Assembly (NCBI GenBank): GCA_026129065.1
Contig: JAHCIV010000002.1
Location: 1-64,000, forward strand
Reading direction: 5' to 3'
DNA length: 64,000 bases
DNA from: Deltaproteobacteria bacterium
GTDB lineage: Bacteria; Myxococcota_A; Polyangia; Haliangiales; Haliangiaceae
The position numbers and the translations under genes are program-made. A model generated the notes under the pieces. It made no database searches. It was not told where the DNA came from and worked only from the letters and a program-made list of their open reading frames with translations. Of the stretch, positions 53,685 through 61,477 are shown piece by piece; position 1 is the first letter of the stretch; each line of letters begins with the position of its first letter.

Positions 53685-54665
53685 TCAGCCGACGCGGTTG
53701 CGCGGGGGCTCGCCGCGCAGCACGCGCAGCGCCTCCTCCGCCGCCTTGCGGCGCATCTCGATCATCGCGTCGAGGGAGTAGAACGCGCAGTGCGGCGTGA
53801 TGACCAGGCGATCGCGCACCGCCGGATCTTCGGCGAGCCAGCGCGCGAGCAGCGGATCGGTGCGATCGAGCGGCTCGTCGGGCAGGACGTCGAACCCGGC
53901 GCTCGCGATCCGCCCGGCCTCGAACGCCGTGGTGAACGCCGGCCAGTCGACCACCGGTCCGCGCGCGGTGTTGACCAGCACGAGTCCGGGCCGCGCGGCC
54001 TCGAAGAACGCGGAGCCGATCATGCCGCGCGTCTCCGCGGTCAGCGGGACGTGCAGGCTGACGACGTCGGACGCGCGCGCGAGGTCGGCGAGCGAATAGA
54101 AGCGGGTCAGGCCGAGCGTCTTGTCCCAGCCCTCGGGCCGGTACGGATCGTAGAACCCGACGCGCAGCCCGAACGCCTTCGCGCGCAGCGCCGTCGCGGC
54201 ACCGATGCGGCCGAGGCCGACGATGCCGAGCATCCGATCGGTCAGCCGGAACGTCGGCGTGACGCCCCAGCGCCACGTGTCGCCGCGCACGGCCCGCTCG
54301 TGGCCGGGGAGGCCGCGCGCGAGTGCGAGCAGGAGCGCGAGCGCGTGATCGGCGACGTCGTGCGTCCCGTAGTCGGGCACGTTGCACACGACGATGCCGC
54401 GCGCGCGGGCGGCATCGAGGTCGACGTTGTCGAACCCGACCCCGATCCGGACCAGCACCTTGCACCGGCGCAGCGCACCGAGCGTTGCGGCGTCCCACCG
54501 CAGATCGTGCCAGGCCAGGATCGCATCCGCGTCCTCGATGCGACCGGCGAGCTCGGCATTGCCGCGCGCGCCGAGCGTCGTCACACGGGCCGCGTCGCCG
54601 AACACCGCCTGCTCGACCTCGGCGTCGGCGGTGCGGTCGGGGACGATCACCTGCCAGGTCGTCAT
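53685..54665 (-). CDS. D-isomer-specific 2-hydroxyacid dehydrogenase (NAD-dependent)
   Basis: GIVGLGRIG NAD-binding motif. Catalytic His-Glu-Arg region. Confidence 0.85.
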   Translation of the reverse strand: MTTWQVIVPDRTADAEVEQAVFGDAARVTTLGARGNAELAGRIEDADAILAWHDLRWDAATLGALRRCKVLVRIGVGFDNVDLDAARARGIVVCNVPDYGTHDVADHALALLLALARGLPGHERAVRGDTWRWGVTPTFRLTDRMLGIVGLGRIGAATALRAKAFGLRVGFYDPYRPEGWDKTLGLTRFYSLADLARASDVVSLHVPLTAETRGMIGSAFFEAARPGLVLVNTARGPVVDWPAFTTAFEAGRIASAGFDVLPDEPLDRTDPLLARWLAEDPAVRDRLVITPHCAFYSLDAMIEMRRKAAEEALRVLRGEPPRNRVG

Positions 54666-55468
54666 GCGCGCGCTCCCGCGATCGTGTTCGCGAGTGTACC
54701 GAGGCCGGCGATCGCGAGCTCGACGCGGTCGCCGGCGCGGACGACCGACTGGCGGCCGCCGAGCGGCGTCCCGGTCAGCACCACGTCGCCCGGCTCGAGC
54801 GTCATGATCCGCGACGCCAGGGCGACCGACGCGTAGGTGTCGAGCACGCGGTCCGCCGTCGTCCCGTCCTGGGTGATCCGTCCGCCGATCGCCGTCGTCA
54901 TCCGGACGTCGGCGTCGTCGAACCCGACCACGAGCTCGGGCCCGAGCGGACAGAAGCCGTCGAGGCTCTTGCTGCGCGCGAGGTGCCAGTCGCGGCCGAG
55001 GATGTTGAGCGCGGTGATGTCATTGCCGATCGTGAGCCCGGCGACCACGTCGCGCGCCGCGTCGGGCTCGCGCAGGTCGCGGGCGCGCCGGCCGATCACC
55101 GCCGCGATCTCGACCTCGACCCACACCTCGGTGTCCGGAATCCGGACCGTCGCCTCCGGATCGGCGAGGCTGTTCGGGGCCTTCAGGAACACCAGCGGCT
55201 CGAATCCCGGGTCGGTGTAGTGCGCCTCGGTCTTCCTCGCGAGCGCGGCCGGGTCGCCGAACAGCGCCTTGTAGTTGTAGCCGAGCGCGAGGATCTTCGT
55301 CGGCTCGGCGGGCGCGAGCACCCGGACGCGATCCGCCGGGAGCGCGACGCTCGTGCGGCGCGTGCCGAGCCACGGCGCGGTCTCGAGCACGGCCACATCG
55401 TCGCCATCGCGCACGCCCCACCGCGGACGGTCGTCGTCGTCGGTGCGGAACCGGACGTAGCGGATCAC
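54662..55468 (-). CDS. Fumarylacetoacetate-hydrolase (FAH) family enzyme (hydratase/decarboxylase-type)
   Basis: GTG start overlapping the upstream stop (GTGA). FAH-fold motifs (GYNYKA, EVEIAAVIG, GTPLG). The upstream part of track ORF 54662..56854 is Arg-rich junk. Confidence 0.7.
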   Translation of the reverse strand: MIRYVRFRTDDDDRPRWGVRDGDDVAVLETAPWLGTRRTSVALPADRVRVLAPAEPTKILALGYNYKALFGDPAALARKTEAHYTDPGFEPLVFLKAPNSLADPEATVRIPDTEVWVEVEIAAVIGRRARDLREPDAARDVVAGLTIGNDITALNILGRDWHLARSKSLDGFCPLGPELVVGFDDADVRMTTAIGGRITQDGTTADRVLDTYASVALASRIMTLEPGDVVLTGTPLGGRQSVVRAGDRVELAIAGLGTLANTIAGARA

Positions 55469-59139: not shown

Positions 59140-60251
59140 CACGCCGCCGGCTCCCCGAGCATCGCGCCCTGGTACCGCGCCAGCGCGGTCGCCGTGTCGA
59201 AGCGACGGGCGCTGACCTCCGCGGCCGTCCCGAGCGAACGCGCGAGCGCGCGATCCGCGAGCACGCGTTCGAGCCGGTCGGCGATCGCCGCGACATCTCC
59301 GACCGGGACCAGGTAGCCGTCGCGCCGGTCGGTGATCACCTCGCGGGGCCCGAAGTCCGCGTCCGTCGCGATCACCGGGACGCCGCACGCCATCGCCTGG
59401 ATGATCCCACCGGGCAGACCCTCCGCGCGGCTGGTGTGGACGAGCGCCGCCGCGCGCGCGAGGTACTTGAACGGGTTCGGATCGAAGCCGTGGAACCGGA
59501 CGTCCTCGGCGATCCCGAGCTCGCGCGCCTCGCGCTCGAGGCCCGGCCGCAAGGGGCCCTCGCCGAGCACGAACAGCCGCGCCGGCCGGCGCGCGCGCAC
59601 GGCGGCGAAGGCGGCGAGCATCGTCGGATAGTCCTTGATCGCGACGAGCCTCCCGAGCGCGACCACCACCGGGACGTCGGCGGCGAACCACGGATGGTCG
59701 ATGCGCTCGGCCGCGAGGGCACGCACGCCGTCGTCGACCATCGGGTTGTACACCACGTGGATCTTCGCGCGTGCGAGCCCGAGCTCGGTCTCGAGCGCCT
59801 GTGCGACGCCGCGCGAGACCGCGGTGACGACGTCCGCGCGCCGGTAGGTCGCCCGCTTGGCCGGGAGCTCGAGGGCCGTGCGCGCGGCGCTGCGATCGGG
59901 CCGCCGCAGCGCGCTGCGCTCCGAGATGACGAGCCGCGCGCGCGAACGTGCCAGCACGTGGGCGATCGCCGCGACGATGTTGGCGCCCCCCTGCATCGCG
60001 AACACGACGTCGGGAGCCTCGGTCCGCAGCACGCGCGCGAGCGCCGGTACAGCGACCGCGAGCCGCCGCGACCCGAGGGTGATCGTCCGGACGTGTGTGG
60101 GCAACTCGCCGACGAGCGCGCCCTCGCGGCGCAGGAGGATGAGCGTCGGCTCGAACCGCGTCCGGTCGAGGTGGTGTAGCAGCGTGATCGTCACCCGATC
60201 GGCGCCGCCGGAAGCGAGCGTCGGAGTGAAGAACGCGACCCGGAGCGCCAT
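59136..60251 (-). CDS. GT4-family glycosyltransferase
   Basis: Internal ATG at 60251 (MALRVAFFTPTL). C-terminal EX7E region (ALVHTSRAEGLPGGIIQAMACGVPVIAT). Confidence 0.8.
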   Translation of the reverse strand: MALRVAFFTPTLASGGADRVTITLLHHLDRTRFEPTLILLRREGALVGELPTHVRTITLGSRRLAVAVPALARVLRTEAPDVVFAMQGGANIVAAIAHVLARSRARLVISERSALRRPDRSAARTALELPAKRATYRRADVVTAVSRGVAQALETELGLARAKIHVVYNPMVDDGVRALAAERIDHPWFAADVPVVVALGRLVAIKDYPTMLAAFAAVRARRPARLFVLGEGPLRPGLEREARELGIAEDVRFHGFDPNPFKYLARAAALVHTSRAEGLPGGIIQAMACGVPVIATDADFGPREVITDRRDGYLVPVGDVAAIADRLERVLADRALARSLGTAAEVSARRFDTATALARYQGAMLGEPAAW

Positions 60252-61477
60252 CACGCGCCTCGCACCGGCGCGGGAGGCCCGGCGGGCGTGGACGGCGTGG
60301 GCGGGGAGACCGGGCGCGCGTTGCTCGCGAGCCGATCGTCCTCGCGCAGGATCATCACGACGCCGATCAGCACCCAGAACAGCGAGAACCGCAAACCCTG
60401 GTGCGTCATGCCGTACGCGAAGGCCGGCCCCATCACGAGCCAGGTGTGGAATCGCGTCCGCTTCATCACCGTCCACATGAACCACACGAACAGGCTCAGG
60501 CCGACGATGCCGTAGCAGAAGAACAGCGTGCCGAGCGACGAGTGCAGCTCGTGCGACCCGATCAGCGTGGTGTCGGCGAACCGCGAATAGGCGCCCTCGC
60601 CGGAGCCGACCGCCCAGTACTCGGGGTGGTTGACGATCCGGTCGTAGCCGCGCTCCTCGAAGAACCCGAGGTGCTGATCGGTCTCGAAGCGCCTCTGCGC
60701 GCGCTCGATCGCCGCCGAGAACGGGTTCGGGGTGAACACGAGGACGAGCATCACCACGCCGAGCAGGAGCATCGTGCGGAGGCGGCCCACCAGCACTGCC
60801 ACCGCGAGCAGGCCGATGCACGCGACCGCCGCCTTGGATGCCGAGAGCAGCGCGAGGTAGCTGCACATGAGGACGCCGATCGTGACGTGCACGTTCGAGA
60901 GCCGGGTCCTGCGCTGCGCGAGCAGCCACACGCACGCGGAGACCAGCGCGTAGTAGCCGAGCTGGTTCGCCTCGTTGAACCCGACGGCGTTGCGGAGCCG
61001 GGTCGGCATGACGAACGACATCGCGACCTGGATGCCGACCGAGACGAACAGCGCACGCGTGGTCACCCACAAGAGCCGGGTCCCGTAGCGTCGATACAGG
61101 ACGAGCATCGCGAGCAGGAGGCCGGCGTTGTAGACGTAGAACAGCGGACTGAGGAGGAACCCCTCCTTCAGGTTGATCGTCAGCTTGAGCAGCACGAACG
61201 ACCACACCACGTTCGCGGCGATGACGTAGAGCACGAACCGCAGCAGCGCGCGCAGGACGGCGGCGCTGTCGCGGCTGAAGCGGCCATCCCACCCGCCGAA
61301 CATCGAGGGGGCCACCGCGATCAGCAGCCAGGCCGCCGGCTGAGGCAGCCCGCTCGGCACGACATAGAACGGGAACAGGATGATGAACAGCGCCCACGCG
61401 AGGAGTCGCGGATCTCGAAAGACCTCGCGGAGCTCGTGGACTACCGCGTTCCAGGACTGCGGCAAGCGGGCGTTCAT
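60251..61477 (-). CDS. Wzy/O-antigen-ligase-family integral membrane protein (second polymerase- or ligase-like gene in the locus)
   Basis: About 10 TM helices. Periplasmic loop TLIGSHELHSSLGTLFFCYG. Confidence 0.65.
   Translation of the reverse strand: MNARLPQSWNAVVHELREVFRDPRLLAWALFIILFPFYVVPSGLPQPAAWLLIAVAPSMFGGWDGRFSRDSAAVLRALLRFVLYVIAANVVWSFVLLKLTINLKEGFLLSPLFYVYNAGLLLAMLVLYRRYGTRLLWVTTRALFVSVGIQVAMSFVMPTRLRNAVGFNEANQLGYYALVSACVWLLAQRRTRLSNVHVTIGVLMCSYLALLSASKAAVACIGLLAVAVLVGRLRTMLLLGVVMLVLVFTPNPFSAAIERAQRRFETDQHLGFFEERGYDRIVNHPEYWAVGSGEGAYSRFADTTLIGSHELHSSLGTLFFCYGIVGLSLFVWFMWTVMKRTRFHTWLVMGPAFAYGMTHQGLRFSLFWVLIGVVMILREDDRLASNARPVSPPTPSTPAGPPAPVRGA

Follow-up and report, generated by a model that had tools for sequence, protein, structure and literature searches.

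How might a bacterium make a sugar acid activated with cytidine monophosphate (CMP) when its pathway lacks the synthase that usually builds the acid head? In every CMP-activated sugar known to us, namely 3-deoxy-D-manno-octulosonic acid (Kdo), the sialic, pseudaminic and legionaminic acids and Kdn, the keto-acid head comes from a synthase that condenses phosphoenolpyruvate (PEP), and the gene for this synthase serves as the marker by which genomes are mined for acidic surface sugars. The question is raised by an operon of eight genes, here named A to H from first to last, in a 64,000-nucleotide stretch of DNA from an uncultured myxobacterium of the Haliangiaceae (contig JAHCIV010000002.1, positions 1 to 64,000; hereafter the window). 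Its last five genes encode a GAPDH-family dehydrogenase (D), a HAD-superfamily phosphatase (E), a cytidylyltransferase (CT; F), a FAH-superfamily enzyme (G) and a D-2-hydroxyacid dehydrogenase (2HADH; H). From their sequences, we give roughly an even chance to the reading that D to H form a self-contained pathway to a CMP-activated 2-keto (ulosonic-type) acid sugar; because the cassette contains no PEP-condensing synthase, we propose that the keto acid would arise by oxidation rather than by PEP condensation.

The operon comprises eight intact open reading frames (ORFs) on the minus strand, running from 61477 down to 53685, and ORF listing together with start-codon mapping bore out the statement of an earlier note on this DNA that the genes are chained by overlaps of 1–4 nt, a stop/start overlap being present at every junction. 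A and B overlap by 1 nt (TGATG), or by 4 nt if B begins at the GTG at 60254, and the remaining six junctions (B/C and F/G, both GTGA, as well as C/D, D/E, E/F and G/H) each overlap by 4 nt at an ATGA or a GTGA. The eight family labels proposed in that note hold at the superfamily level, as judged by Pfam and NCBIfam matches, profile comparisons and structure models, and its remark that the pairing of a phosphatase with a CT follows the logic of Kdo and sialic-acid synthesis also stands. It had further noted that the corresponding synthases are missing, in line with our searches: tblastn with NeuB proteins from related loci detected no NeuB gene in the window, and no NeuB or KdsA (DAHP_synth_1) domain was present among the Pfam-scanned window ORFs, a scan that left out several gaps.

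To place the operon among its relatives, 80 related loci were fetched, their ORFs clustered and gene co-occurrence tallied over 81 loci (L002 and L004–L083). A D-like gene was present in 27 of these, accompanied by an FAH gene in 26/27 and a 2HADH gene in 25/27, and in most cases by an E-like or other HAD gene. In the 54 loci without D, an FAH gene was seen only twice, both times on contigs cut off immediately before the 5' side of the CT, upstream of it. No KdsA was found among the conserved gene families of the 81 loci, and NeuB lay within 8 kb in only six of them, where it was accompanied by a CT of its own. The cassette occurs in Myxococcota, Oligoflexia/Bdellovibrionota, Omnitrophota, Elusimicrobiota, KSB1, Fibrobacterota, Thermodesulfovibrionales, Rhodothermales, Vicinamibacterales, Pelagibacteraceae (SAR11) and Prochlorococcus, and in phyla other than Myxococcota the stretch between D and E often holds two additional genes, for a GalE/LegB-like epimerase and for a methyltransferase. 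The co-occurrence of the five enzymes, which the earlier note had proposed to look for, thus identifies D-E-F-G-H as a conserved unit rather than a chance grouping. As a separate observation, in an Oligoflexia metagenome-assembled genome (JADLCR010000088.1; L001/L009) the cassette lies between two separate NeuB+CT pairs, giving three PF02348 CTs in one locus that also holds an FkbM methyltransferase and a weak Glyphos_transf protein, which suggests that several CMP-sugars are made there side by side.

The activating step would fall to F (55465..56196, 243 aa), which matches CTP_transf_3 (PF02348) with 36.2 bits against a gathering score of 22.6. All characterised members of this family make CMP-2-ulosonates, to our knowledge. 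F does not group with KdsB, an assignment that the earlier note had regarded as decisive against its own proposal, scoring 19.6 bits with NF003950 (cut-off 234) and 18.1 bits with NF003952 (cut-off 193). Its nearest curated relative is PseF (TIGR03584, 54.9 bits) and its best solved relative a NeuA (44.6 bits), yet it lies far below the cut-offs (205.7 for PseF), which argues for a separate, unnamed clade within PF02348. Orthologues of this clade are 55–84% identical across phyla and 55–60% identical between phyla, an unusually high conservation. They retain the superfamily motifs, with G8-R9-S12-K17 and D216/D218 invariant (GxxGSxxxxxKN and the D-x-D metal motif), and share the private invariant motifs YNM[FW]S.LRA and CDRDSQGD.YF.DCS. 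Within the longer pattern CDRDSQGD.YF.DCS.F..R..C, residues C167, C180 and C189 are invariant in 18 orthologues from many phyla, have no counterpart in NeuA alignments and may form a metal or disulfide site. A word-indexed search returned 1350 matches, a collection of species-representative genomes yielded 361 stretches that match the clade, and the clade forms 57 clusters at 50% identity below an E-value of 1e-30; from plasmids, just two matches came up, both distant and NeuA-like.

Gene fusions connect this CT with the dehydrogenase. In seven loci, a single polypeptide carries an N-terminal CT and a C-terminal 2HADH (L035, 4244-6181; L056, 8210-9991; L063, 10687-12522; L069, 9995-11830; L079, 9748-11532; L080, 11563-13353; L081, 13174-14946), an arrangement confirmed for representatives and suggesting that formation of the 2-keto acid is tied to activation; several of these loci additionally encode a further CT of this clade as a separate protein. 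Further fusions in the CT family join it to a GT29 sialyltransferase domain (two cases), an inositol-monophosphatase-family domain, a methyltransferase or an aminotransferase. The GT29-, inositol-monophosphatase- and methyltransferase-fused relatives (P0399, P0437, P0466 and P0376) are metagenomic proteins with no locus attached. Both GT29 fusions carry the C-terminal D-x-D-x-EWQ...GF[ST]...PY extension of the clade and lack some of its other motifs; they are cousins of the clade, not orthologues.

D (56921..57958, 345 aa) has the Gp_dh_N and Gp_dh_C domains of Pfam, contains VVSTSICDAIAAAP and, as the earlier note had read, carries TSICDA at its active site. It scores 239 bits with the type I GAPDH model TIGR01534 (cut-off 367) and 206.8 and 205 bits with the Epd models TIGR01532 (cut-off 530.6) and NF010058 (cut-off 539). 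Equivalents of Cys149 and His176, the NAD-binding GxGxxG...D32 and WYDNEWGY are retained in the window protein and its 27 homologues from the related loci, as is the equivalent of Arg231. In all 27 loci, the active-site motif reads S-I-C-D (S-I-C-D-A in the window) where GAPDH has S-C-T-T, and TTLHPWLSYQNL stands in place of TTVHSYTNDQRL; the changes S148I, T150D, T151A and T179L are invariant or near-invariant, and the subfamily also has a 10-residue insertion in the S-loop and an IPK.TT motif. These features, together with strict co-location with the cassette, speak against the ordinary gap paralogue that the earlier note had raised as an objection, and D is best assigned to a distinct GAPDH subfamily. 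At the inorganic-phosphate site, Ser148 is replaced by Ile, Thr150 by Asp and Gly209 by Thr, with Arg195 unaligned owing to the insertion. Since the substitutions cluster at this site, with Thr150 to Asp invariant, D has probably lost phosphorolysis, suggesting that its product is released by hydrolysis instead.

The other three enzymes can likewise be placed by family. E (56193..56924, 243 aa), with a C1 cap and resemblance to phosphoglycolate phosphatase, reaches only 22.5 bits with the Pfam Hydrolase model (cut-off 26.4). Its HAD motifs I–IV (DFDGV, STRD/STKD, K163 and DD185-186) are nevertheless kept in 15 orthologues, with D7, D9, K163, D185 and D186 invariant, and its family profile finds COG0546 and phosphoglycolate phosphatase structures at E-values of 1e-9 to 4e-7, indicating a predicted HAD phosphatase with an intact core that is not of the KdsC type. 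G (54662..55468, 268 aa) is Rv2993c/Cg1458/HpaG-like, matching FAA_hydrolase with 161 bits (cut-off 23.9), Rv2993c-like_N with 42 bits and the HpaG C-terminal model with 129 bits (cut-off 276). Its neighbours in the Protein Data Bank (PDB) are HpaG, HHDD/CHM isomerases, Cg1458 (PDB 4dbf) and OPET decarboxylase, and the metal ligands E-x-E...D can be read in its sequence (VEVEIA...GNDIT). FAH enzymes act on 2-keto acids. G was also considered as a former of C–C bonds, by a decarboxylative aldol or a Claisen reaction with the acyl-enzyme of D, an idea not adopted for want of precedent. H (53685..54665, 326 aa) matches 2-Hacid_dh_C with 156 bits and 2-Hacid_dh with 101 bits, stays under all equivalog cut-offs (222 against 454 bits for 3-phosphoglycerate dehydrogenase (PGDH), 104 against 434 for PdxB), has CtBP1 (178 bits) and Mycobacterium tuberculosis PGDH (169 bits) as its best PDB matches, and shows the Arg/Glu/His triad in NTARG, DEP and TPHCA.

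As each enzyme comes from a large family with central-metabolic members, the five could in principle be housekeeping paralogues that merely lie in a polysaccharide operon. Seven consecutive overlapping junctions, strict co-occurrence in at least nine phyla, scores well under every equivalog cut-off and the subfamily-specific active-site signature of D together effectively refute this explanation.

The same CT clade also occurs in a second arrangement. CTs about 50% identical to F are found in methanogens, Methanoperedenaceae, Chloroflexota and Clostridia, and also in Desulfovibrionales, Planctomycetota and some SAR11, in a sister cassette whose core consists of the CT, a 2HADH, an epimerase-type short-chain dehydrogenase/reductase (SDR) and a HAD protein. 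Instead of D and G, it contains a radical-SAM/SPASM enzyme that is usually accompanied either by a short-chain SDR or by a TIM barrel of the xylose-isomerase type, whose nearest curated relatives are keto-sugar-acid epimerases and isomerases. Its variable extras include HisC-like and DegT-like aminotransferases, methyltransferases, a sulfotransferase, B12-radical-SAM enzymes and a cyclase-family protein. None of the 27 D-containing loci had a radical-SAM/SPASM gene, against 34 of the 54 lacking D, a split that points to the GAPDH-like+FAH pair and the radical-SAM/SPASM enzyme as alternative modules. We put forward, tentatively and with less confidence than the pathway itself, that the PEP-independent oxidative route is one branch of a large hidden family that shares this CT across hundreds of bacterial and archaeal species, with the two modules serving as interchangeable ways of shaping the keto acid. 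The radical-SAM form of the cassette is commoner in anaerobes.

An alternative that we consider unlikely is that F activates a conventional ulosonic acid, either Kdo from the lipopolysaccharide pathway or a nonulosonic acid from genes elsewhere, and that D, E, G and H either modify this acid sugar or its phosphate precursor or provide a separate small acid substituent (glyceroyl, lactyl or malyl, for instance). All recovered cassettes of the GAPDH+FAH type come from diderm lineages, which normally possess KdsA, and NeuB+CT pairs flank the cassette in two Oligoflexia loci; the absence of a C–C-forming enzyme from the cassette would also be accounted for. Nonulosonic acids bearing N-glyceroyl and di-O-methylglyceroyl groups exist, and papers describing these groups on pseudaminic acid give their genes as unknown; we kept such groups as a cassette product only within this alternative. 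Against it, a NeuB gene that lies nearby has its own separate CT, and most loci have no NeuB within 8 kb at all. Moreover, archaea, Chloroflexota and Clostridia have no Kdo and yet carry sister cassettes with a CT of this clade, and the fusion of CT and 2HADH in one polypeptide speaks for a direct supply of the CT by the dehydrogenase.

If the product of F is a CMP-sugar, a transferase must place it, for which the candidate is C (57955..59139, 394 aa), a protein with a predicted GT-B fold. C has no Pfam or NCBIfam family match, including none to PF04464 (Glyphos_transf) even at E<=10, sequence searches with C and E against the PDB returned nothing useful, and Foldseek gave only generic GT-B matches for C. 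Its homologues show weak matches to Capsule_synth (KpsS/C), polysialyltransferase, DUF6716 and Epimerase_2 and none to Glyphos_transf, the TagF family; precomputed annotations list PF05159 in at least seven of them and PF07388 in one, the window protein itself being without a match. Q137-E138-G139 and K259/H261 are invariant in the family and Pro262 is its consensus, replaced by Gly in the window protein; these residues may correspond to the HP motif and the acidic D/E-D/E-G-type motif of KpsS/KpsC and bacterial sialyltransferase-like CMP-sugar transferases. In other phyla, the CT is accompanied by large proteins of about 600–660 aa that belong to TIGR04326, TIGR04331 (LIC12162 family transferase) or the BFO_1060 glycosyltransferase family, with partner transferases also listed under TIGR04396. 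An hhalign comparison (97.5%) shows the nucleotide-binding halves of these proteins and of C to be homologous, and their K-x-H-P motifs align. In work on Tannerella, BFO_1060 is reported to be the family of nonulosonic-acid transferases. Judged from such sequence similarities, the transferases that accompany the cassette are akin to those for nonulosonic acids and Kdo. Four features thus point towards a donor of the CMP-ulosonate type: the superfamily to which the CT belongs, the domains fused to it, the accompanying transferases, and the presence of 2HADH and FAH enzymes, both of which handle 2-keto acids.

The same proteins bear on a further alternative, less probable still, in which F makes a CDP-linked phospho-acid or phospho-polyol (for example CDP-glycerate or a CDP-tetronate) from a phosphomonoester and C, as a phosphotransferase of the TagF/TarL kind, adds it by way of a phosphodiester. 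The nearest characterised relatives of D, H and E work in the chemistry of glyceraldehyde-3-phosphate (G3P) and erythrose-4-phosphate, of 3-phosphoglycerate (3-PG) and of phosphoglycolate, and phosphodiester-linked substituents of the glycerate type occur in O-antigens. In such a pathway, however, a phosphatase would be counter-productive, and we know of no PF02348 enzyme that makes a CDP-diester. The homologues of C match Capsule_synth, polysialyltransferase and DUF6716 but never Glyphos_transf, and both the GT29 sialyltransferase domains fused to CT relatives and the BFO_1060/TIGR04396-like partner transferases are at odds with a CDP-linked product.

Returning to the CMP-activated keto-acid sugar, we propose the following flow. 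D would oxidise a phosphorylated aldehyde to the acid, H would turn the 2-hydroxyl into a 2-keto group, G would act on the metal-bound 2-keto acid by isomerisation, dehydration or decarboxylation, E would take off the distal phosphate and F would make the CMP donor. C, with the GT4 enzyme B, would then place the residue on the repeat unit, which would be exported and polymerised by the Wzx/Wzy proteins that the locus encodes, A with its WaaL/Wzy fold among them. What the sequences show directly are the gene content and order, family membership, the catalytic residues, the conservation of the five-gene set and the fusions. We infer from these in which order the enzymes act, that D releases its product by hydrolysis, what G does, that the donor is a CMP-ketoside and that C is its transferase, and a carbon skeleton of C5–C7 is more plausible than one of C3–C4.

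As the product, the earlier note had suggested either a three-carbon acid (glycerate or phosphoglycerate-derived), its preferred version, or a non-canonical ulosonic acid. A three-carbon acid, either glycerate or hydroxypyruvate derived from G3P or 3-PG, that is CMP-activated and transferred as a substituent would agree with the substrates that one would most conservatively assign, which are all C3: G3P to D, 3-PG or glycerate to H and small phospho-acids to E. We nonetheless regard it as improbable. On chemical grounds, a C3 acid could not give a ketosidic CMP donor, as a 2-keto or 2-hydroxy acid of C3 or C4 would be unable to form the cyclic hemiketal on which CMP-ulosonate donors and their transferases rely. 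3-PG is abundant in central metabolism, making a dedicated and highly diverged GAPDH paralogue superfluous, and the FAH enzyme has no obvious C3 substrate. The GalE/LegB-like and keto-sugar epimerases of sister cassettes, in turn, make no sense for a C3 unit. A sugar acid with several hydroxyls would better fit the GalE/LegB-like epimerase and methyltransferase that accompany the cassette and the aminotransferases, sulfotransferases and keto-sugar epimerases found with the CT family. Glycerate is thus the unlikely half of that suggestion, and a non-canonical ulosonic acid appears to be the better reading.

Several points weigh against the oxidative pathway as proposed. The cassette contains no recognisable enzyme for forming C–C bonds. 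The aldehydes on which GAPDH-family enzymes are known to act are all open-chain and C3 or C4, and the 2-keto acids derived from them are unable to close into a ring, so that a furanose- or pyranose-forming C5–C7 substrate for D is an assumption; D might take a larger substrate, the skeleton might come from elsewhere, or the donor might not be a ketoside. The phosphate-binding Arg-Ser motif of PGDH is absent from H, which aligns in that region with CtBP (WHDLRW against YHTITL), suggesting that it may act after rather than before dephosphorylation. The closest solved folds to C include TarL and TagF, which use CDP-alditols, as well as hydrolysing 2-epimerases, and the K-x-H-P motif alone does not separate CMP from CDP donors. 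The proposed flow also leaves the exchange of D and G for a radical-SAM/SPASM enzyme unexplained, and literature searches for this combination of enzymes found no publication on the cassette.

By analogy, the last two steps of the cassette would resemble those of Kdo and nonulosonic-acid synthesis, and its first steps would have their counterpart in Epd-PdxB or SerA-SerB. With the CMP-Kdo pathway (KdsD-KdsA-KdsC-KdsB, with KpsS/KpsC) it shares a HAD phosphatase, a PF02348 CT and, presumably, a CMP-linked 2-keto acid sugar donor, as well as the weak Capsule_synth matches of the C homologues. It differs from that pathway in having neither the PEP aldolase KdsA nor an arabinose-5-phosphate isomerase, in its capped, phosphoglycolate-phosphatase-like HAD enzyme in place of KdsC and in a CT far below the KdsB cut-offs, and its GAPDH-like, FAH and 2HADH enzymes are foreign to the Kdo route. 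The nonulosonic pathways (NeuB/PseI/LegI with NeuA/PseF/LegF) hold the nearest relatives of the CT (PseF at 55 bits, NeuA at 45), and the partner transferases fall in or near nonulosonic transferases (BFO_1060, TIGR04396, GT29 and polysialyltransferases), whereas the operon lacks a NeuB-family synthase and genes for tailoring UDP- or GDP-linked N-acetylhexosamines, and its CT clade has motifs of its own.

For the first steps, Epd (GapB) with PdxB, or SerA-SerB, offers a possible parallel, in which a GAPDH-family enzyme and a 2HADH would act serially on a phosphorylated aldehyde to give a 2-keto acid phosphate, with a HAD phosphatase following. D and H lie far below the Epd and PdxB cut-offs, however, and D carries S-I-C-D rather than S-C-T-T, with the loop insertion; the cassette also lacks SerC, PdxA and PdxJ and is embedded in and co-inherited with polysaccharide genes. 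Unlike the teichoic-acid polymerases TagF/TarL, which use CDP-glycerol and CDP-ribitol, C and its homologues have no Glyphos_transf match, and the nucleotidyltransferase is of the NeuA/KdsB rather than the TagD/TarI type. The dehydrogenative branch of aromatic meta-cleavage (HpaE-HpaG) similarly combines an aldehyde oxidiser with an FAH enzyme that acts on a 2-keto or enol acid, and HpaG is the best FAH match to G, whereas the dehydrogenase of the cassette has the GAPDH rather than the ALDH fold, dioxygenase, hydratase and aldolase are missing, and the context is biosynthetic.

The operon lies at the distal end of a complete Wzx/Wzy-type exopolysaccharide (EPS) locus. From about 31.8 kb on, this locus contains MBOAT and GNAT genes and a Bac_transf initiating transferase, an SDR, a UDP-glucose dehydrogenase, a GFO/IDH/MocA oxidoreductase, a Wzc-like tyrosine kinase, another GT4 enzyme and a methyltransferase, together with three plus-strand genes. 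These encode a Wza-type polysaccharide export protein (49064..49756; Poly_export 58 bits, with SLBB), a 796-aa membrane protein with a Wzy_C domain (49763..52153; 60 bits) and a long soluble C-terminal half, and a Wzx flippase (52150..53676; Polysacc_synt_3 259 bits) that is convergent with H, 8 nt separating the two stop codons. At the other end of the operon, B (59136..60251, 371 aa) matches Glyco_trans_1_4 (116 bits), Glycos_transf_1 (113 bits) and Glyco_transf_4 (69 bits), and a B-like and C-like gene pair adjoins the cassette in a Rhodothermales locus (L016). A (60251..61477, 408 aa) is a polytopic membrane protein with about ten hydrophobic helices and no Pfam or NCBIfam match, Wzy_C included. 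Its AF2 model (pLDDT 91.4) has the O-antigen ligase WaaL as its sole significant PDB fold match (7TPG, E-value 1.6e-5, with a modest TM score of 0.52), and some of its homologues in JGI data are named O-antigen ligase. Of the two WaaL/Wzy-fold proteins in the locus, A and the Wzy_C-domain protein, one may be the polymerase and the other ligase-like.

The window has a G+C content of about 70%, and the closest relatives are Kofleriaceae (Myxococcota). Upstream of the operon and on the same strand, after a 74-nt gap, a protein of more than 815 aa (61552-63999, running past the window end) has many 'VVW.D.R.G..DIFG'-like repeats, a Cys-rich C-terminus and a weak Disintegrin match; it may be a secreted or surface protein that is co-transcribed with the operon. 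Elsewhere in the window, a plus-strand ORF of about 1440 aa (12638-16963) contains major-vault-protein domains (MVP_shoulder 88 bits, Vault_3 41 bits). Vault-protein homologues are unusual in bacteria. Between this region and the EPS locus lie an FG-GAP repeat protein (22754-24457) and a Ser/Thr protein kinase with TPR repeats (24458-26788), both on the plus strand.

Two findings from the literature were compared with the cassette. The capsule of E. coli K3 has a hexulosonic acid side branch; blastn of E. coli genomes with AT-rich homologues of the cassette gave no match, which does not refute a link, and a capsule-typing paper with its supplements does not list the relevant domains. Untargeted mass spectrometry of nucleotide sugars, in turn, has recorded CMP-linked species that are unassigned. 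No connection was established between the cassette and either the K3 hexulosonic acid or these species, and a paper classifying 2HADH enzymes provided no relevant context.

If the pathway is as proposed, the cassette would represent a new type of CMP-sugar pathway, and more than that if its oxidation-based route is confirmed. It would reveal a class of surface sugars that is invisible to current annotation and yet occurs in abundant environmental lineages, among them Myxococcota, predatory Bdellovibrionota, SAR11, Prochlorococcus and Omnitrophota, with the sister form in methanogens and Chloroflexota. It would also provide a genetic handle for the unassigned CMP-linked species of nucleotide-sugar mass spectrometry, and three enzyme folds that have been studied very thoroughly would gain new functions.

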